From Candidatus Azambacteria bacterium (GTDB lineage Bacteria; Patescibacteriota; Minisyncoccia; UBA10092), in NCBI GenBank assembly GCA_016213445.1, contig JACRAJ010000002.1, positions 36,780 through 100,779 of the forward strand: 64,000 bases of DNA, in the 5' to 3' direction. Each line of letters starts with the position of its first letter. Within the stretch, counting starts at the first letter, position 1. Below the pieces are notes generated by a model. It worked only from the letters and a program-made list of their open reading frames with translations, was not told where the DNA came from and did no database searches. Made by a program: the position numbers and the translations under genes. Positions 12,320 through 48,315 of the stretch are shown one piece after another.

Positions 12320-13561
12320 CTATTTTGATTGCAATGCGCTTAAAACCTTATTTATTATTTCCGCGGCTTTCTTTATTTCTTCCTTCGCGGTGTTTTTGCC
12401 GAGAGTAATCCGAATACTTTCTTTCGCTTCTTTTTCAGTCAAACCGATTGCGGTTAAAACATGGGAAGGCTCCATTGCCCTGCTGGAACAAGCGGAACCG
12501 GCCGAAACCGCCACACCGGCCTGATCCAAAGCCACTATAAGCGTTTCATTGCTTATTCCCGGAAACCTTATATTAATGTTATTCGGCAATCGGCCTTCAA
12601 AAGAGCCGTTTAATTCGGCCGACTTATTGTATTTAACGATATTTTCCCACAAGCCGTTTCGCAAATCAAGAACATGTTTGGAACGTTTCTCGCGATTTTT
12701 TCCGCCAGAGGCGGATCCGCCTCTGGCGGAAAAAATCAATTCAACCGCTTTCGCCAATCCGGCAACGGCGGCGACATTTTCCGTGCCCGAACGCAAACCG
12801 AATTCCTGCCCGCCGCCGGAAATAATCGGCGAAAGCGGCGTGTTTTTTCTTACATAAAGCCCGCCAATACCTTTGGGACCGTAAATTTTATGTCCGGAAA
12901 AAGTAAGCAAATCCGCTTTAAGCCAATCGGGGCGGCATTCCAAATAATTCATCGCCTGCACCGCGTCGGTGTGGAAATATATTTTTGAGAACCCATTTTC
13001 CCGCCTTGTTTTATTAATTTTTTCAATCAATTTCCCGATTTCTTTTATCGGCTGGATTGTTCCGATTTCATTATTGGCGTAAATAACGCTTACCAAAACC
13101 GTATTGTTTTTGATTGTTTTTTCAATGTCGGAAATTTTTACCAACCCGTTTTTATCAACCGGAAGATAATCAATTTCATGGTCGGCTTTTTTTAATTCTT
13201 TCAGCGGCTCGTGAACCGACTCGTGTTCTATCGGCGTGGAAATTATATGGTATTTAGTATTTGATATTTCTTGTTTTGTATTTTTTTTGAAAATTGAAAA
13301 TTGAAAATTCCTCGCAATTCCCAAAATTGCGAGGTTATTAGCTTCTGTCGCCGAGCCGGTGAAAATTATTTCGTTGAAATCGCAATTTAACAATTCGGCG
13401 ATTTTTCCCCGCGCGCCGTCTATTGCCGCTATCGCCTCCTGGCCGAATGAATGAATTGAAGAAGCGTTGCCGAATTTTTCGGAAAAATACGGCATCATCG
13501 CTTTTAAAACTTCGTCATCAACCGGTGTTGTCGCCGCGCAATCAAGATAGATTTTTTTCAT
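12320..13561 (-). CDS. cysteine desulfurase (class V aminotransferase, NifS/IscS family)
   Basis: PLP-lysine motif SGHKIYGPKGIGGLYVR and active-site SAGSACSS. It contains two in-frame repeat insertions (see repeat features). Confidence 0.85.
   Translation of the reverse strand: MKKIYLDCAATTPVDDEVLKAMMPYFSEKFGNASSIHSFGQEAIAAIDGARGKIAELLNCDFNEIIFTGSATEANNLAILGIARNFQFSIFKKNTKQEISNTKYHIISTPIEHESVHEPLKELKKADHEIDYLPVDKNGLVKISDIEKTIKNNTVLVSVIYANNEIGTIQPIKEIGKLIEKINKTRRENGFSKIYFHTDAVQAMNYLECRPDWLKADLLTFSGHKIYGPKGIGGLYVRKNTPLSPIISGGGQEFGLRSGTENVAAVAGLAKAVELIFSARGGSASGGKNREKRSKHVLDLRNGLWENIVKYNKSAELNGSFEGRLPNNINIRFPGISNETLIVALDQAGVAVSAGSACSSRAMEPSHVLTAIGLTEKEAKESIRITLGKNTAKEEIKKAAEIINKVLSALQSK
12696..12735. 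repeat. perfect 40-bp palindromic element, GGATCC-centred, inserted in-frame in the cysteine desulfurase
   Basis: ttttttccgccagaggcggatccgcctctggcggaaaaaa encodes SARGGSASGGKN. This stretch has no counterpart in E. coli IscS. A near-identical element sits in fba. Confidence 0.9.
13289..13334. repeat. (GAAAATT)x3 microsatellite plus 9-bp-stem hairpin inserted in-frame in the cysteine desulfurase
   Basis: gaaaattgaaaattgaaaatt is followed by cctcgcaattcccaaaattgcgagg. Together they encode an extra ~13 aa (FQFSIFKKNTKQE) relative to IscS. Confidence 0.85.
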
Positions 13562-14334
13562 AATTTTTCCAGCGCGGCGTTGAGTTCTTTAACTTGCTGT
13601 TCGGCGCGAGCGCGCCAGTCGCGGCCGGCGCAAAGCTCGTGATGCGAACAAAAATCGCAGACAAAATTCACCGTCCACTTTCCTTTATCTTCGTCAAAAA
13701 CAACCGGGTCGGGCAAAGGCGGCAATTCATCTTTACTCCAAGAACTGTTTAAAATTTCAAGCTGATCAACAATCGGTTTCACCGCTTCTTCGGAATAATT
13801 TACGGGAATAATCAGTCTGCCCAAATCGTCGCGGGAAACGTAAATTAGCCGGCCTTCGAGATTGGAAAAATCAACTTCCGGCAAATCCGCGTGGCCGTGA
13901 TTCCGGAGGCGCCACACGTAAAAAAGCATTTGGAGTTTATGCTGGGGCTGGGGCGCCTTGGTTTTTAATTTGTATTTGAAACTGAAAGAATTCGTCGATT
14001 TTATTTCGTAAAGCACCGGATGGCCGCCTTCGTCTATTATTAAATCAACCTTGCCCGACGCTTCATATTCCGGCGCCTCTATCCGCAATTGTTCCGCCAC
14101 CAATTTTCCCGAGTTTTTTACTTTATCGACAATCCAAGTCTCGACTATTTTGCCGACTTCCATAATTCCCATCCTGTCCGGTGGAATAACCGATGTCGGC
14201 GGCAAGCCTTTGCGGCGGTAAAAAGCGCCCCTCAAACAGGAATTCAAATCGGTCGCCCACCAGCTTTTTTTGGCATACGGCTCGCGGATGAAGCTTTCGT
14301 TTATTATTTTATCTAAAAAAGTGAGGGAGTCCAT
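13558..14334 (-). CDS. PD-(D/E)XK nuclease, Cas4-like (second copy)
   Basis: VDLIIDEGGHPVLYEIKST gives the D/ExK motif. The C-terminus has C-D-F-C-S-H-H-E-L-C plus an N-terminal Cys. There is a 4-nt overlap with both neighbouring genes. Confidence 0.75.
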   Translation of the reverse strand: MDSLTFLDKIINESFIREPYAKKSWWATDLNSCLRGAFYRRKGLPPTSVIPPDRMGIMEVGKIVETWIVDKVKNSGKLVAEQLRIEAPEYEASGKVDLIIDEGGHPVLYEIKSTNSFSFKYKLKTKAPQPQHKLQMLFYVWRLRNHGHADLPEVDFSNLEGRLIYVSRDDLGRLIIPVNYSEEAVKPIVDQLEILNSSWSKDELPPLPDPVVFDEDKGKWTVNFVCDFCSHHELCAGRDWRARAEQQVKELNAALEKL

Positions 14335-14903
14335 AATTTTTTTATTTCGAGTCCCGAATATTTCGCCAGGTTAATTTTTAAAGTTTTCACGTAAGGCAAA
14401 TTGGCATCGCGAGCCGTATATTTCAATTCGCCGTTTTTAAGGCAATGCTCGTACAAGTCTTTTGTAAGCCTTACGTCGTCGAGGCAATATTTTTTAAGCT
14501 CGTCCATTCTCCCCTGCCGCCAATAATCAACCGCCGCAAGACCGTTGCCGCTTTTTCTTTTCCCCAAAGTGTTGCCGACCAAATCATCCAAACTCACCCG
14601 ATGCCCCGCAACGCTTACGAATTCGGCCATAATATCAAGCGTTGGAATTTTGGCCAAATCGATGGACAAATATTTTTTCAAAACCGGCAAATCGAAATGA
14701 TCGATGTTAAAACCGATAATTAAATCGGTTCTTTTCAGCAAATTTTCAAACGCCGGCATTTCCTTTTCCGTAAAAGTTAAAAACTTATTATCGGAATAAG
14801 AATAAACGCCGGCGACGGAAAGCAAAAGTTTCGACAAATTTCCCTTGCCGCCGACGTCGGAAAATAAATTTTGAGTTTCAATGTCTAAAACAATGCGATT
14901 CAT
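14313..14903 (-). CDS. DnaQ-like DEDD 3'-5' exonuclease (RNase H-like fold, PolB-exo/YprB-type)
   Basis: Exo I VLDIETQN, Exo II GFNIDHFDLPVLKKY and Exo III YCLDDVRLTKDLY are all present. Confidence 0.7.
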   Translation of the reverse strand: MNRIVLDIETQNLFSDVGGKGNLSKLLLSVAGVYSYSDNKFLTFTEKEMPAFENLLKRTDLIIGFNIDHFDLPVLKKYLSIDLAKIPTLDIMAEFVSVAGHRVSLDDLVGNTLGKRKSGNGLAAVDYWRQGRMDELKKYCLDDVRLTKDLYEHCLKNGELKYTARDANLPYVKTLKINLAKYSGLEIKKLWTPSLF

Positions 14904-15955
14904 AACTCGTCTTCATCTCTGGGAGCTTCAATGGCCATCGGCTCGATTCCAACAGCTTCGCCCGTTATTTTTAAAACATCCTTATCGATTTTTTTCAATT
15001 CTTTGTAAGATTGGTTATACATATTAACGGAAGTGCCCAAGTGCGTGCCCAGTTTTTTCATATACGTTTCATAGCTTGAAAGATGCCGCCCCAATTCTTC
15101 AACTCTTTTTCTTATTTCCTTCGCCGATTCTTCGATTTGAAGCGCTTTCAACCCCTGAAGCACCGTTTGAAGATACGCGAAAAAAGAAGTCGGAGAAACA
15201 ATTATCACTTTTTTATCGACAATGGCATACTCAACAAGGTCCCTGGCGTTTATCGAACCGACTTTGTTTATCAACAAATCGTAATAAACGGCTTCGGCGG
15301 GAATAAACATAAAAGCAAAATCCATAGTGCCTTCGCCCGGCTTTACATATTTTGAGGTTTCGTCAATGCGGGTTTTCAAATCGTTCCTGAAAGCGTCTTC
15401 CAGTCTTTTTCTTTCAACTTCATCGCGAACTTCCAGCAAGCGATTGTAATTTTCCAAACTGAATTTGGAATCTATCGGAATGATTCTGTCTTTAATGAAT
15501 ATTGCCGCGTCAACGATTGTGCCGTCTTTGAAACCATATTGCAACTCATAAGTTCCCGGCGGCAAAACGTTTTTCAAAACCGTTTCCAGATAATATTCTC
15601 CCAAAATTCCGCGCTGTTTCGGATTTTTCAATATGTCCTGCAAATTTTTCAGCTGATCGGCGAAATTCACCACCTGTTTATTGGTATCGTCAAGCTTGGT
15701 GAGGCGCTCGGTGACATCGCGGATAATTTTCGCGCTTTGGGAAAACTGGTTTTGAATCTGGCTTTGCATCGTTTGCGCCGATTCTCCGAGTTTTTTATCA
15801 AGCGTCCGCGCGATTTCATTTATTTGATTTTGTATCAAAAGAAACGATTGCGACTGCGAGCCTTCACCGCCTTTCTTTTTAAAAATAAAAAAAGCGAATC
15901 CGCCCAGCGCGGCGCCCAAAACCAGAGAAAATAAAATTAAAATAAAATTATCCAT
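14900..15955 (-). CDS. rmuC: DNA recombination protein RmuC
   Basis: N-terminal TM helix, a long coiled coil, and the RmuC C-terminal domain (FAFMFIPAEAVYYDLL...IVSPTSFFAYLQTV). Confidence 0.85.
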   Translation of the reverse strand: MDNFILILFSLVLGAALGGFAFFIFKKKGGEGSQSQSFLLIQNQINEIARTLDKKLGESAQTMQSQIQNQFSQSAKIIRDVTERLTKLDDTNKQVVNFADQLKNLQDILKNPKQRGILGEYYLETVLKNVLPPGTYELQYGFKDGTIVDAAIFIKDRIIPIDSKFSLENYNRLLEVRDEVERKRLEDAFRNDLKTRIDETSKYVKPGEGTMDFAFMFIPAEAVYYDLLINKVGSINARDLVEYAIVDKKVIIVSPTSFFAYLQTVLQGLKALQIEESAKEIRKRVEELGRHLSSYETYMKKLGTHLGTSVNMYNQSYKELKKIDKDVLKITGEAVGIEPMAIEAPRDEDEL

Positions 15956-17764: not shown

Positions 17765-17785
17765 ATTGACGGTCATTTCATAAAC

Positions 17786-17822
17786 AAAACCGCCCCGCAG
17801 CTGCGGGGCGGTTTTGTTTTTC
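17786..17822. terminator. bidirectional intrinsic terminator
   Basis: aaaaccgccccgcagctgcggggcggttttgttttt, between convergent genes. Confidence 0.8.
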
Positions 17823-17828
17823 AAAGAT

Positions 17829-18675: not shown

Positions 18676-19089
18676 TTATTTTACCGGCAAGGCGCAAGCG
18701 CTTTCTTGGGATAATTTTTCAAGCGACTGCTCCCCCATTAATTTTTTTCCATCCGGAAAAATCCACGTCGGATAGCCTTCAATTCCTTTGGAGACGCAAA
18801 CCGACGGATTATCGGGGCATTCGATATACGGCACATATTTAAATGAATCGCCGAATAATTTTTTTTGATTTTGGCAATGCGAGCACCAAACCGCGCCGTA
18901 CATCGTGATGTTTTTTGACGCCAAACATTTGGCAAATTCATCAAGCGCGCCTGCCGGCTTTTTCCCGCCAAACCGCCCGGAAATAAAAAACGCAAACGCG
19001 AAAACCAAAATAATAACGCAAAAAGCAAAAATAAGTTTTGATTTTAAATCGTAATTTTTCATTTTTATATTTATTTTTTTCAGCCGCAA
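18676..19089 (-). CDS. membrane-anchored thioredoxin-fold protein (CxxC)
   Basis: TM helix followed by YGAVWCSHCQNQKKLF, a WCxxC active site. Confidence 0.65.
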   Translation of the reverse strand: MRLKKINIKMKNYDLKSKLIFAFCVIILVFAFAFFISGRFGGKKPAGALDEFAKCLASKNITMYGAVWCSHCQNQKKLFGDSFKYVPYIECPDNPSVCVSKGIEGYPTWIFPDGKKLMGEQSLEKLSQESACALPVK

Positions 19090-19119
19090 GCTGATTCGCC
19101 TTTGGCGGACAATTTAATA

Positions 19120-19620
19120 TTATTCGTCGCAACAATCAACCAATTTATCCAGGATGTCGTTCAAAGTCCACGGCTTTTCATTTTTAGCTATTTCTTTAAC
19201 TGCCGGCATATCCAGCAGTTTCAAGCGCAAACCCCAAAAAATGGAATACAATTCTTTTGCTTTGCCGAATATTTCTTTAGCCTCCTCTTTTTTATTGTCG
19301 GAATAAAGTTTGGTGCCGACTTCAATTAAACGCATGGTTGTCGCCAATAAATGCTTTGAGGCGCACCAAGTTTCGCCCTCGTGTTCGCTTATTAATTTTC
19401 TTAACAGCGCCTTCCTCGCTTCTCTCGTTTCCAAAAGCCAATCCAAATATTCCGCTTTTCCGGTTTTGGCGCTGGTGAAGAAAAAATGCTCTTCAAGGGA
19501 AATAAGGTTCATCACGGCGATGCTCAAATCTTCTTCCATGGACAAATCAACTTCGCCGGATTTTTTCATCTGCTCGATTTTTTTTATCAGATCCTGAAAT
19601 TTTTTATTATTGTCATCCAT
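19120..19620 (-). CDS. hypothetical protein
   Basis: 166-aa helical protein ending in CCDE. It sits between the CcdA-like and thioredoxin-like genes in the same orientation. Confidence 0.5.
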   Translation of the reverse strand: MDDNNKKFQDLIKKIEQMKKSGEVDLSMEEDLSIAVMNLISLEEHFFFTSAKTGKAEYLDWLLETREARKALLRKLISEHEGETWCASKHLLATTMRLIEVGTKLYSDNKKEEAKEIFGKAKELYSIFWGLRLKLLDMPAVKEIAKNEKPWTLNDILDKLVDCCDE

Positions 19621-45352: not shown

Positions 45353-46027
45353 TCAACCTTGGTATCGCTTCCTCCACTCCTCGATTTTTTTATGGTTGCC
45401 GGAAAGCAAAACTTCGGGAACGGCGTATTTTTTACCGCGATAAATAAAAACATCCGGACGAGTGTATGTTGGAACGCCAATTCCGTATCTCTTTTCTTCG
45501 AGCGATTCCTCTTTGCCCAAAACACCCGGAATATGCCGCGAAACCGCGTCAATAACAACCATTGCCGGAAGTTCCCCTCCGGTTAAAACATACGGCCCTG
45601 CTGATAATTCCGAAATCCGAAATTCGAAATTCGAAATTACTTTTTTAATCCGCGCGTCAACGCCTTCATAACGGCCGGCAATCATCACGATGCGATCATA
45701 TTTTTTGGCGAAATCGCTTGCCATCTTGGAATTAAATTGTTTTCCGGAAGCGGAAAATAATATTATCTTGACTTTTGATTTTTGATTTTTGATTTTTGAT
45801 TTTAAAATCGAATCGAGAGCTCTAACAATCGGTTCAGCTTTAAACACCATTCCCGCTCCCCCGCCATACGGCTTTCCGTCAACCGTTTTATGCTTGTCGG
45901 TCGTAAAATCGCGCAAATTAATCGCGTTGATTTTAATTTTCTTGTTTTTTAAGGCGCGCTTAATGATACTCTCGTTTAAATAAGAATCGAAAATTTTCGG
46001 AAAAATTGTTATTATGTCAAATTGCAT
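45353..46027 (-). CDS. trmD: tRNA (guanine37-N1)-methyltransferase TrmD
   Basis: HKTVDGKPYGGGAGMV and the SPOUT knot region YVLTGGELPAMVVIDAVSR. Confidence 0.9.
   Translation of the reverse strand: MQFDIITIFPKIFDSYLNESIIKRALKNKKIKINAINLRDFTTDKHKTVDGKPYGGGAGMVFKAEPIVRALDSILKSKIKNQKSKVKIILFSASGKQFNSKMASDFAKKYDRIVMIAGRYEGVDARIKKVISNFEFRISELSAGPYVLTGGELPAMVVIDAVSRHIPGVLGKEESLEEKRYGIGVPTYTRPDVFIYRGKKYAVPEVLLSGNHKKIEEWRKRYQG
45611..45638. repeat. heptanucleotide microsatellite (CGAAATT)x4 in trmD
   Basis: cgaaatccgaaattcgaaattcgaaatt encodes ISNFEFRIS in a variable loop. Confidence 0.85.
45773..45808. repeat. heptanucleotide microsatellite (TTTTGAT)x4-5 in trmD
   Basis: cttttgatttttgatttttgatttttgattttaaaatc encodes LKSKIKNQKSKVK. 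Confidence 0.85.
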
Positions 46028-46048: not shown

Positions 46049-46172
46049 AATAATAATTTTTCTCGCGCACTCGGCCGCCCAGCGGCGACCTTATTGTCCG
46101 ATGAAAGCGTTTTGCTCCGCTACGCGGAGACCATGCCAAAACGCTTTCATAAGCTTCGTAAAATTATTATTT
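46049..46172. repeat. MITE-like dispersed repeat, copy A, with terminal inverted repeats
   Basis: Core: ctcgcgcactcg...ttgtccgatgaaagcgttttgctccgctacgcggagaccatgccaaaacgctttcataagcttcg. It is flanked by the TIRs aaataataatttttc / gtaaaattattattt. The same core recurs at 61139-61267. Confidence 0.8.
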
Positions 46173-46692: not shown

Positions 46693-48315
46693 TTATCTCC
46701 CTAAAAAGAAATTGAGAATAACGCCAAATGGAGAATATTTGAGCAATGATTGGGGAGCGCTTGGCTCGGGCGCGGGTACGGGAGCGGGCGCGGCGGCGCC
46801 GGACGGAGAAGGCGGAGCTGTTTCTCCTGATGGCGGCGGAGAAATTGTTCCCGGTGGCGGCTGAAAGCCTTCCTGGGGCATTTGACCGACAGGAGGCATT
46901 TGGCCGGCGGGCGGCATACCTTGCGAAGGCGCGCCGGGCGGATATTGAAAACCCTCTCGCGGCATTTGATATTGCGGATACACACCTTCCCGAGGCATTT
47001 GGCCTTGAGGCGGCATTTGGCCGGCGGGCGGCATGTATTGCGAAGGCATGCCAGCCGGAGGCTGGAAGCCTTCCCGAGGCATTCGGCCTTGAGGCGGCAT
47101 TTGTCCGGCGGGCGGCATCATTGGAATAAAACCGGGAATTTCCTGGATATTTTGCTGAAATTGCTGGAGGCTCCGTTGGGCTTCATCTGGTTTCATCAAT
47201 CCGGCGTCTTTGGCAAAATTAATGCAAGTTTGGACATTATTCGGATCATTGCAATAATTATTGCATTCCTCGTCGCTTTTACAGCCGCCCGGTCCTCCTG
47301 ATTCTTCCAGATTCCGGCCGACTGCCTGCATTTTTTCAATCTTTTGGATTTCCTCCGGCGGTATTAAGTTATTTTCTTTGGCGAATTTAAAACATTCTTC
47401 CCTATGCGACTGGTCATCGCAATATGTCTTGCATTCTTCGCCGCGGCAGCCGCCGGGGCCCGTCATGTTCTCAAATTTTTCAATACGCTCCAATTCCTCC
47501 GGCGGTATTAAGTTATTTTCTTTGGCAAATTTAAAACATTCTTCCCTATGCGACTGGTCATCGCAATATGTCTTGCATTCTTCGCCGCGGCAGCCGCCGG
47601 GGCCTATTTTACTGCCTATTTTTCTTGCGTTTTCGGCATCTTCGGCGCTTATAAGCCCGTTATCTTCGGCGAATTTCAGACATTCGTCTCGGTGCGACTC
47701 GTCATCGCAATAAGTTTTGCAAGCCGGACCGCGACAGCCGCCGGGACCGGGTTTGTTTCCCATTTTTTTCGCCCGCGCCAATTCCTCCGGAGGAATTAAA
47801 TTATTATCCTCGGCAAATTTAATGCAAACATCAAAATTTTGGTCTTGAGAACAGAAAGAATCGCATTCCGTTTTGGAACGGCAGCCGCCTGGGCCACCGC
47901 TTTGCTGGACTTTTTTGGCTATTTTCAATTCTTCCGGCGGAATCAGATTATATTTTTCCGCAAACGCGAGGCATTCATCAATATTTTTGCCGCTATCGCA
48001 ATAGGCCTTGCACTCGGCTTCCGATTTACAGCCGCCGGGACCGCCCTTTTCCAAAACTTGGCGCGCGATCTTTGTTTCGTTCTTGCTCATCAGATTATTC
48101 TTTTCGGCGAAAGCCAGGCAAGCGCCAGCATTCTCCGATTTATCGCAATATGCTTTGCATTCATCGTAAGAGCCGCAATTGCCGAGTTCGGAAATGGGAA
48201 AGTTCAAACTAAAAGGATTTTGGGCGCGAACGCTGTTAAACGAAAAAAACAATCCGGCGGCAAAAAACAGAAAAACAAAAATGATTTTTGCCGATTTAAA
48301 TTTTATGTATTTCAT
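46693..48315 (-). CDS. secreted tandem 4-Cys-domain repeat protein with Pro/Gln/Met-rich C-terminal tail
   Basis: Signal peptide, then about 8 units of ~45 aa (GPGGC-x5-C-x3-C-x8-C...NNLIPPEEL...), two of them identical at DNA level. The tail has PPAGQMPPQGQMPREG repeats. Confidence 0.7.
   Translation of the reverse strand: MKYIKFKSAKIIFVFLFFAAGLFFSFNSVRAQNPFSLNFPISELGNCGSYDECKAYCDKSENAGACLAFAEKNNLMSKNETKIARQVLEKGGPGGCKSEAECKAYCDSGKNIDECLAFAEKYNLIPPEELKIAKKVQQSGGPGGCRSKTECDSFCSQDQNFDVCIKFAEDNNLIPPEELARAKKMGNKPGPGGCRGPACKTYCDDESHRDECLKFAEDNGLISAEDAENARKIGSKIGPGGCRGEECKTYCDDQSHREECFKFAKENNLIPPEELERIEKFENMTGPGGCRGEECKTYCDDQSHREECFKFAKENNLIPPEEIQKIEKMQAVGRNLEESGGPGGCKSDEECNNYCNDPNNVQTCINFAKDAGLMKPDEAQRSLQQFQQNIQEIPGFIPMMPPAGQMPPQGRMPREGFQPPAGMPSQYMPPAGQMPPQGQMPREGVYPQYQMPREGFQYPPGAPSQGMPPAGQMPPVGQMPQEGFQPPPGTISPPPSGETAPPSPSGAAAPAPVPAPEPSAPQSLLKYSPFGVILNFFLGR

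Follow-up and report, generated by a model that had tools for sequence, protein, structure and literature searches.

Short GC-rich stem-loops arranged as inverted dimers are a known feature of bacterial genomes, where they occur as repetitive extragenic palindromic (REP) sequences and the related REPIN and BIME (Bertels and Rainey, 2011, PMC3116915; Di Nocera et al., 2013, PMC3733652). REP dimers are head-to-head or tail-to-tail, with like or unlike halves that are sometimes 1–2 bp apart; copies inside genes add 20–30 residues to proteins that include tRNA synthetases, and such copies are most abundant in Opitutus terrae, a verrucomicrobium, and in Rickettsia (R. conorii; RPE-4 and RPE-6) (PMC3733652). 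Here we describe a 30-nt double hairpin (DH) found in 64,000 nucleotides of a Candidatus Azambacteria genome (contig JACRAJ010000002.1; this whole stretch is called the window below). We regard it as highly probable that DH is a mobile, selfish, translated insertion element.

DH is closest to the REP dimers, and by its features we place it among the selfish hairpin repeats of the REP/RPE type as a variant not described before. It shares the GC-rich stem-loops and the inverted dimers. REPs also reach tens of copies per genome, some of them inside open reading frames (ORFs), and DH is alike, with five dimers in 64 kb and extra copies in other loci. By contrast with REPs, DH units are 15 nt long with no spacer and the total is fixed at 30 nt, there is no GTAG/CGTC tag, and the flanks have T at –2 and A at +2 as their consensus. 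REPs are predominantly extragenic, whereas four of the five copies in the window are intragenic, and, unlike REPs, one DH family spans many phyla. The gene that DH flanks encodes a GIY-YIG nuclease and not the Y1 transposase known as the REP-associated tyrosine transposase (RAYT), with the limit that the ORF clusters around DH were not scanned for Y1 domains. The Rickettsia palindromic elements (RPE; Ogata et al., 2000, as summarized in PMC10969869), with which the palindromes had been compared in the sequence-only reading of the window, are an apt analogy, and the intragenic REP dimers are a closer bacterial precedent (PMC3733652). As that summary presents them, RPEs resemble DH in being palindromic selfish repeats that sit in frame in unrelated housekeeping genes, at tolerated places, and are translated; they are approximately 100–150 bp long, are confined to Rickettsia and relatives, and are given no known partner enzyme there, whereas DH is 30 nt long, crosses phyla (Patescibacteria and others) and is linked to a nuclease. 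Literature searches, which were not exhaustive, returned no description of DH or of an association between DH and GIY-YIG genes.

Two near-identical perfect palindromes centred on GGATCC had been reported from the sequence alone, and both are present, CCGCCAGAGGCGGATCCGCCTCTGGCGG at 12702–12729 and CCGCCAAAGGCGGATCCGCCTTTGGCGG at 57022–57049. Neither was matched in any of 100 dinucleotide-preserving shuffles, even with three mismatches permitted. The first had been given as 40 bp and is in fact perfect over 44 bp (12694–12737, 22-nt arms), with the T-run and A-run of the target lengthening the arms; the second is perfect over 30 bp (57021–57050). Both host genes are on the minus strand, and the reading phase of the two copies is the same. 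Rather than a GGATCC palindrome, the unit is a DH made of two abutting inverted 15-nt units, each with a 6-bp GC-rich stem and a 3-nt loop, and each half of the two palindromes, TCCGCC-NNN-GGCGGA, is a hairpin by itself. To the window we applied first a relaxed consensus and second a covariance model, for which only copies from other genomes had served as training data. The model detected exactly five copies in the 64 kb (E values from 2.5e-17 to 6e-8) with the next match at chance level, which adds three copies to the two that had been claimed:

12701–12730, TCCGCC-AGA-GGCGGA + TCCGCC-TCT-GGCGGA, in the cysteine desulfurase (NifS) gene, minus-strand reading SARGGSASGG, 60.9 bits (copy 1)
57021–57050, TCCGCC-AAA-GGCGGA + TCCGCC-TTT-GGCGGA, in the aldolase (Fba) gene, minus-strand reading SAKGGSAFGG, 55.9 bits (copy 2)
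55098–55127, CCAGCC-AAA-AGCTGG (one stem mismatch) + TCCGCC-TTT-GGCGGA, in the ribosomal protein L25/Ctc gene, minus-strand reading SAKGGPAFGW, 44.2 bits (copy 3)
32119–32148, TCCGCC-GAA-GGCGGA + CCAGCC-ACA-GGCTGG, in the cysteinyl-tRNA synthetase (CysRS) gene, plus-strand reading SAEGGPATGW, 45.7 bits (copy 4)
19080–19109, TCAGCC-GCA-AGCTGA + TTCGCC-TTT-GGCGGA, intergenic and decayed, 31.9 bits (copy 5)

The halves of copies 3 and 4 are unlike. Copy 5 lies between the stop codon of ORF 19120–19620 (minus strand) and the likely ATG of a thioredoxin-like ORF at 18676–19062 (minus strand). The background of the window is approximately 43% GC, and GGATCC is under-represented in it (6 sites against 12.5 expected). 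The centre of DH in relatives can also be TGATCC, GGACCA, GGGTCC or others, and GGATCC is thus not conserved. When folded as single strands the two perfect palindromes form one long hairpin each and the copies with unlike halves form two hairpins. A search of the window against Rfam at gathering thresholds identified eight tRNAs and nothing on DH. Taken as a whole, the data are best explained by a small mobile element that is non-coding, the 30-nt DH, of which the palindromes are very probably copies.

Some other candidates in the window were rejected. A single CCAGCC...GGCTGG hairpin at 47051, in a Pro/Gln-rich ORF, is a chance occurrence, being in another frame and within a low-complexity repeat. 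Three intergenic near-perfect palindromes at 17776–17825, 33014–33050 and 63764–63797 had no match to the covariance model. They have A-run/T-run arms and GC-rich cores, AAAACCGCCCCGCAG/CTGCGGGGCGGTTTT being an example, and resemble intrinsic terminators of the usual bidirectional type.

The four genes that contain a copy are as follows:

12320–13561, minus strand, cysteine desulfurase, NifS/IscS-like (PF00266; 100% identity to database protein P0001)
56367–57293, minus strand, class II fructose-bisphosphate aldolase, Fba (PF01116; 100% identity to database protein P0121)
54630–55346, minus strand, ribosomal protein bL25/Ctc (PF01386 and PF14693)
31618–33018, plus strand, cysteinyl-tRNA synthetase, CysRS (PF01406)

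Because the database protein P0121 has 297 amino acids, the true start of Fba is likely the ATG at 57260. We compared these proteins with 120 NifS orthologs (58–76% identity), 120 Fba orthologs, L25 from three relatives and from the PDB, and PDB homologs of CysRS. Approximately 110 of the 120 NifS orthologs read ...ELVF^KNREK... (the caret marks the site of DH here and below) with a clean 10-residue gap at the position of DH; five have an insert at the same site, and three have a partial element followed by a deletion. Exactly the ten residues of DH are missing from 117 of the 120 Fba orthologs. Alignments with solved structures show gaps of 8–11 residues at DH in all four genic copies (4r5f for NifS and 3q94 for Fba), the gap being exactly 10 residues in CysRS against 8qhp and 11 residues in L25 against L25 structures in the PDB. 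At the DNA level the empty sites are GTT TTT^GAA AAC in NifS, GAA TTC^GGC ATT in Fba and AAA GCC^AAA AAT in L25, the last of which is empty in three related genomes. In all three genes the filled DNA differs from the empty DNA by an exact 30-nt block between the same codons with unambiguous boundaries. This comparison revealed no target-site duplication at NifS, Fba or L25, with no base duplicated or lost. The number of added codons, which had been put at 11–12, is therefore exactly ten (30 nt) in NifS and in Fba. These ortholog, structure and DNA alignments bear out the earlier suggestion that an apparently selfish, repeated element had made lineage-specific, frame-preserving inserts in unrelated housekeeping enzymes. 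A location in a surface loop had also been proposed, and for Fba this agrees with the AlphaFold2 model, where the insert (residues 71–80 of P0121) is coil of low confidence (predicted local distance difference test score, pLDDT, below 50) between a helix at 56–72 and a strand at 84–91. Given how TIM barrels are generally built, a helix-to-strand loop such as this one probably faces away from the active site.

Presence of the insert is patchy. Every NifS or Fba ortholog that bears an insert has closest relatives that do not, and this holds at high identity: the filled NifS P0002 is 91% identical to P0021, and the filled Fba P0122 is 91% identical to P0201. Filled and empty sites also occur together in one genome. 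The metagenome-assembled genome (MAG) GCA_043812515.1 has an insert in Fba, a truncated insert in NifS, one in MurB and none in L25, and at L226 the insert is present in Fba and absent from L25. Because the filled orthologs are not each other's nearest relatives, DH has been gained or lost repeatedly; at a few permissive sites there have been repeated gains, or precise losses. A second site in NifS, near residue 86, is occupied in the orthologs P0003 and P0010 by a DH variant with TCCCCC/GGGGGA stems that reads SPYGGSPKGG (L120, 1612–1641). In that region the NifS of the window has approximately 13 unrelated extra residues, within FQFSIFKKNTKQEISNTKY, compared with its PDB homolog 4r5f. The three NifS orthologs with a partial DH and an adjacent deletion are P0059, P0088 and P0097, which suggests that deletions are associated with the element. 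In P0059 (L125, 156–1328) the first hairpin and TCCGC are followed by the loss of approximately 12 NifS codons.

To place the window copies among others, a genome collection was scanned with the degenerate pattern YCMGCC N3 GGCKGR, twice; the figures on anatomy and taxa given here describe the matches listed. The pattern occurs in at least 119 stretches (at least 124 copies). Approximately half of the listed matches are from many classes of the candidate phyla radiation (CPR), and the others include Kiritimatiellae, Verrucomicrobia, Planctomycetes, Omnitrophota, Gammaproteobacteria, Ignavibacteria, Bacteroidota and Chlorobi, among others. The Bacteroidota carriers include a cultured isolate, Marivirga aurantiaca. 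The genome of the window had been called CPR-like from its sequence, and it is indeed from Azambacteria, a CPR lineage; DH itself is not specific to the CPR. Another 19 stretches were found in viral contigs. No GIY-YIG gene adjoins DH in any of these 19, and there is thus no evidence for a phage vector.

The stems of the listed copies covary. Two stem positions are left free by the pattern, and these are complementary in 228 of 242 half-units against 25% expected. Doubly changed pair cells number 98, compared with 23 ± 4 in shuffles, and none of 500 shuffles reached 98; when the 3' partners are slid by 1–3 columns, paired cells fall from 99.4% to 22–47%. Copies outside the pattern selection show compensated stems as well (CCCGCT/AGCGGG, TGCGCC/GGCGCA and TCCCCC/GGGGGA), together with ordinary decay. 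All listed copies are inverted dimers that lack a spacer. Neither in stem type nor in loop is there a statistical dependence between the two halves: 50 copies have the same stem type in both halves against 55.8 expected, and 17 have complementary loops against 14.1 expected. Perfect palindromes account for only 6 of 121 copies, and the GGATCC-centred palindrome that had been taken as the unit is better described as two 15-nt hairpins that are independent of each other. This independence rules out that the conserved structure is one long palindrome or cruciform, only the two perfect copies folding as one hairpin. In at least 90% of copies the final base of loop 1 is A and the first base of loop 2 is T, and the flanks have T at –2 in 95 of 121 and A at +2 in 93 of 121. 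The consensus with flanks is T-N-[YCMGCC-NNA-GGCKGR][YCMGCC-TNN-GGCKGR]-N-A. The DH unit is T-N-stem-NNA-stem', the element is this unit and its inverted partner, and the perfect palindromes of the window are special cases. In a Kiritimatiellae MAG (L003, 4400–4760; L012, 4500–4800 and 6321–6621) DH opens an approximately 200-nt repeat with GTCATTCCGAGCGTAGCGAGGAATCTC and more GC-rich hairpins, and a Verrucomicrobia MAG (L071) has a related flank, CATAGGAATTT before DH and CAATCCGT after it. These may be composite elements built on DH.

How DH behaves inside genes was examined with 38 listed copies that have at least 70 open codons on each side in one frame. All except one of these deep-genic copies (37 of 38) are free of stop codons. 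They are read as S/P-A-x-G-G/W in 25 cases, as PP-x-ADPP-x-AE in eight and in the third phase in four. In the main phase S/P-A-x-G-G/W is read twice per DH and from either strand, and results in a flexible stretch of small residues. Among the listed matches, long ORFs hold approximately 36% of the copies outside the window in phase 0. Of the half-units 16% have the TCAGCC/GGCTGA stem type, which puts a TGA into the main phase, and none of the deep-genic copies has it. Because all but one of the deep-genic copies are stop-free and the stem type with TGA is missing from them, DH is translated and filtered by selection and is not spliced out; splicing or bypass is ruled out by the 37 open copies. 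It had been proposed that the element survives by in-frame insertion. The frame is kept, and 30 nt equals ten codons, so this happens automatically downstream of every insertion; selection appears to act instead on the codon phase and against stops. The symmetry of the palindromes had further been said to give the peptide PKADPPLAE in three spurious ORFs. This is correct for two ORFs at the Fba site, whereas the ORF that begins at 12549 reads PPEADPPLAE.

A common feature of the targets is a T-rich^A-rich junction, for example TTT^AAA. Reconstructed empty sites have a flanking stem of at least 4 bp in 19% of cases against 11% (p = 3e-4), a weak excess of which the NifS site, GCGATTTTT^AAAAATCGC, is one case. 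Complementarity of the flanks at equal distances was at expectation. On this weak excess we do not regard a hairpin loop as a required target.

ORFs were clustered around 138 loci chosen by the presence of DH. A single small family recurs beside DH, a stand-alone protein of 80–95 amino acids with a GIY-YIG domain only (PF01541); no other recurrent small family was found among the 25 largest ORF clusters, which were not scanned against Pfam or for Y1 domains. Seven GIY-YIG ORFs occur in the DH-seeded loci and six of these are within approximately 130 nt of DH, which is 6 of the 119 genome loci listed. At one locus (L095) the gene has DH on both sides, and an Azambacteria protein of the family (P0274, 81 amino acids) is encoded 31 nt downstream of DH. 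For a reciprocal test we used 80 metagenome loci (220 kb) picked by the GIY-YIG protein alone. A canonical DH lies within 200 nt of the GIY-YIG gene in 45 of the 80; it is upstream in 37 (at 8–82 nt), downstream in 14 and on both sides in six. By a tally of the match table, the covariance model has a match in 56 of the 80, and nearly all of the 57 DH copies in these loci adjoin the GIY-YIG gene. The nearest solved relatives of the protein are the UPF0213 proteins 1zg2 and 1ywl, followed by the structure-specific endonuclease SLX1, and the NCBIfam matches to group I intron endonucleases are all below threshold. The family has at least 7,349 database proteins at E ≤ 1e-10 and is common in Patescibacteria. 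Rfam searches of 11 GIY-YIG/DH loci at E ≤ 0.1 identified nothing on DH. For the minimal prokaryotic Slx1-like branch to which UPF0213 belongs, no experimentally established function is reported by Dunin-Horkawicz et al. (2006, PMC1564403).

A tRNA gene is present in 71 of the 80 protein-seeded loci. The recurring layout, in either orientation, is an intact tRNA gene, the GIY-YIG gene and a truncated duplicate of the same tRNA. Within the duplicate DH is found in the D-arm (after position 8, 12, 17 or 21), the anticodon loop (36/37) or the T-loop (54), and it is always 3–18 nt from the break point of the duplicate. Such cassettes were seen in other genomes at L076 (7200–7700), L095 (6420–6900) and L146–L224, most commonly with tRNA-Ser, tRNA-Asn and tRNA-Gln, and some duplicates (L156 and L205) contain two hairpin elements. 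At L171 the upstream flank is duplicated. This fixed geometry ties DH to the event that placed the nuclease gene, and does not by itself determine which is cause and which is effect.

These data show the anatomy of DH, its clean insertion, its patchy distribution in close relatives, its read-through, its spread across phyla and its physical linkage to the GIY-YIG gene, and a mechanism can be proposed on this basis. DH inserts as an exact 30-nt block at T-rich^A-rich junctions with no target duplication. Copies in tolerant surface loops of essential proteins would persist and be translated as a flexible stretch of small residues, and those with stop codons or in harmful places would be purged. 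Mobility most likely needs an enzyme that acts in trans and recognizes extruded hairpins, with single-stranded or cruciform DNA as the presumed substrate. The best candidate is the minimal 80–95 amino acid Slx1-like GIY-YIG nuclease, the DH-flanked gene of the tRNA-linked cassettes in many lineages including Azambacteria, which could cut at or near DH and thereby drive its spread. We consider the chances about even that this nuclease is an enzyme acting on DH, and similarly balanced that it moves DH in the way proposed for RAYTs and REPs. That DH and the minimal GIY-YIG nuclease form an undescribed two-part mobile system, widespread across Patescibacteria and further phyla, paralleling REP/RAYT with a different class of enzyme, is a tentative proposal that we rate somewhat below even.

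Several points weigh against these ideas. A nuclease alone explains neither strand transfer nor the source of the copied template, and a tblastn search found no GIY-YIG gene of this family in the 64-kb window. The protein-seeded loci are relatives of the GIY-YIG genes found beside DH, and the 56–70% association is valid for that subfamily alone. The cassette geometry fits DH as a cleavage signal or landing pad equally well as it fits a nuclease that moves DH. A site that is filled in some relatives and empty in others could have come about through repeated precise loss, or by recombination of lineages, instead of repeated gain. Lastly, given that the genome scan is defined by its pattern and its listed matches, the abundances and taxon shares are not quantitative.

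One alternative is that DH is the recognition or cleavage signal of the GIY-YIG enzyme, such that a homing cassette beside an intact tRNA gene cuts DH-bearing alleles and is copied in by one-ended repair, with the genic DH copies having spread by other means. The constant order of intact tRNA, GIY-YIG gene and truncated duplicate, with DH 3–18 nt from the truncation, speaks for this, and the duplicated upstream flank at L171 is consistent with synthesis-dependent repair that copied a donor locus. Enzymes of the Slx1-like type are structure-specific nucleases (PMC1564403), and the partial DH copies with deletions in P0059, P0088 and P0097 resemble imprecise repair of breaks beside DH. This would, however, leave the clean 30-nt insertions at non-homologous sites unexplained, and the ORF clusters around the 138 DH-seeded loci yielded no second enzyme candidate; we judge it possible but rather unlikely. 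It is improbable that DH is simply one more REP/REPIN family, mobilized by a RAYT whose gene lies elsewhere in the genome. Transposition by Y1 enzymes of the IS200/IS605 type (HUH transposases) is seamless and duplicates no target, which matches the clean insertion of DH, and the GC-rich stem-loop units, the inverted dimers with like and unlike halves and the intragenic copies that add residues are all described for REPs (PMC3733652). Nonetheless, no GTAG/CGTC tag stands beside the hairpin, the intragenic share in the window is four of five, REP families are normally genus-specific whereas DH spans phyla, and the only recurrent small family adjacent to DH is GIY-YIG, in ORF clusters not scanned against Pfam.

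It is less probable still that DH is a structured motif of benefit to the host, such as a signal for the processing or stability of RNA or a site bound by a nucleoid or topology protein, with the genic copies incidental. The strong stem covariation could be read in this way, and in 37 of 80 loci DH lies 8–82 nt upstream of the start codon of the GIY-YIG gene, where it could have a regulatory role, but covariation is also expected if only intact hairpins are copied. The presence and absence of DH at the same site in close relatives, its occurrence in unrelated housekeeping genes, its decay and deletions, the lack of a matching Rfam family and the lack of strand preference that follows from its symmetry all argue against a host function. 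Explanations by ancestral protein loops, chance palindromes, products of local recombination or slippage, or assembly artefacts are refuted. Fold-back artefacts can yield perfect palindromes, and beyond this there was just the ambiguity at the outset. The shuffles did not reproduce the palindromes (0 of 100), the great majority of NifS and Fba orthologs do not have the residues, and the same family is found in hundreds of contigs from different studies and assemblers, the isolate Marivirga aurantiaca included. The copies have point mutations and variants containing stops are absent from genes. A recombination hot-spot, which the sequence-only reading had offered as its alternative, does not account for one specific family at hundreds of unrelated sites. 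Two of the checks it had proposed, alignment of NifS and Fba orthologs and a search for further copies, both came out in favor of insertion (approximately 110 of 120 and 117 of 120 without exactly the 10 residues; five copies in the window and many in other genomes).

The reading we prefer, in which DH is a mobile and selfish insertion element, can also be compared with more distant systems. Transposable elements of the miniature inverted-repeat kind (MITEs) have terminal inverted repeats, and DH does too in that it consists only of two inverted 15-nt units. Unlike MITEs it has no target-site duplication at NifS, Fba or L25, and no partner resembling an insertion sequence (IS) with the same ends was found; its one partner, the GIY-YIG ORF, has no transposase domain. 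Double-hairpin elements of mitochondria were reportedly described by Paquin and colleagues in 2000. The double-hairpin elements (DHE) of Allomyces and fission-yeast mitochondrial DNA, the GC clusters of yeast and the hairpin elements of sponges resemble DH in having two adjacent short GC-rich hairpins in an AT-rich genome, in being dispersed between genes and within coding or RNA genes, and in that mobility is inferred from presence and absence (PMC10085805, PMC2800124). Mitochondrial genomes with such elements are also rich in GIY-YIG and LAGLIDADG genes, a specific linkage of element and nuclease not being established. The mitochondrial elements are organellar and of variable length, whereas the hosts of DH are bacterial, and they are likened to DH by description and not by sequence. 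SegB of phage T4 (PMC2330249) is encoded by a small GIY-YIG gene beside tRNA genes and is associated with duplication or co-conversion of flanks, as in the DH cassettes. Seg enzymes have DNA-binding domains and no hairpin repeat, unlike the DH-linked GIY-YIG protein. A possible footprint of a homing cassette is visible at DH loci as partial duplications of tRNA genes, with GIY-YIG adjacency in other genomes and not in the window. The stand-alone Slx1-like UPF0213 proteins belong to the same minimal branch as the DH-linked protein, and Dunin-Horkawicz et al. (2006, PMC1564403) report neither a function nor an association with repeats or tRNA for them.

A selfish element of this kind can colonize the essential genes of very small genomes as exactly ten harmless codons. 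DH accounts for one class of Gly/Ser/Ala-rich insertions in CPR proteins, which annotators and structure predictors would otherwise take as lineage-specific loops, and for spurious ORFs that read PP-x-ADPP-x-AE. To our knowledge, at 30 nt and with no spacer or target duplication it would rank among the smallest mobile DNA elements described. Its link to the nuclease gives a testable hypothesis of function for the very large stand-alone Slx1-like GIY-YIG family, and bears on rearrangements of tRNA genes in these bacteria. If the two-part system is real, it would provide a first function for the stand-alone UPF0213 GIY-YIG proteins, through recognition of extruded hairpins, and would account both for the 10-residue in-frame inserts scattered over essential proteins and for tRNA genes being duplicated or disrupted at the D, anticodon and T loops. 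DH also forms a bridge from bacterial repeats to the double hairpins and GC clusters of mitochondria, which have long lacked an explanation, and its presence or absence could act as a fine-scale strain marker in metagenomes.

Other features of the window were observed along the way. Directly upstream of NifS, at 13558–15955 on the minus strand, are genes for a PD-(D/E)XK Cas4-like nuclease (PF12705), an RNase H-like/3'-5' exonuclease protein and RmuC. This cluster is syntenic in a related genome (L122) and is thus a conserved DNA-processing cluster, with no link to DH shown. A second repeat of approximately 105 nt has two copies, at 46060–46160 and 61152–61252, with a core of approximately 70 nt (...TTGTCCGATGAAAGCGTTTTGCTCCGCTACGCGGAGACCATGCCAAAACGCTTTCATAAGCTTCG) that contains one difference. 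The hairpin that precedes the core has compensatory changes (GCCGCC-CAGC-GGCGAC versus CCTCGC-CAGC-GCGAGG). Both copies are on the minus strand upstream of two unrelated genes, 45353–46027 (with a TrmD-like motif) and 60337–61002, and neither has a match in Rfam; the two copies may be structured leaders, or may represent a further small family of repeats. Lastly, 46693–48315 on the minus strand encodes a predicted secreted protein of 540 amino acids with approximately seven Cys-rich repeats of approximately 50 residues (...GGPGGC.SE.EC..YC...) and a tail rich in Pro, Gln and Met.

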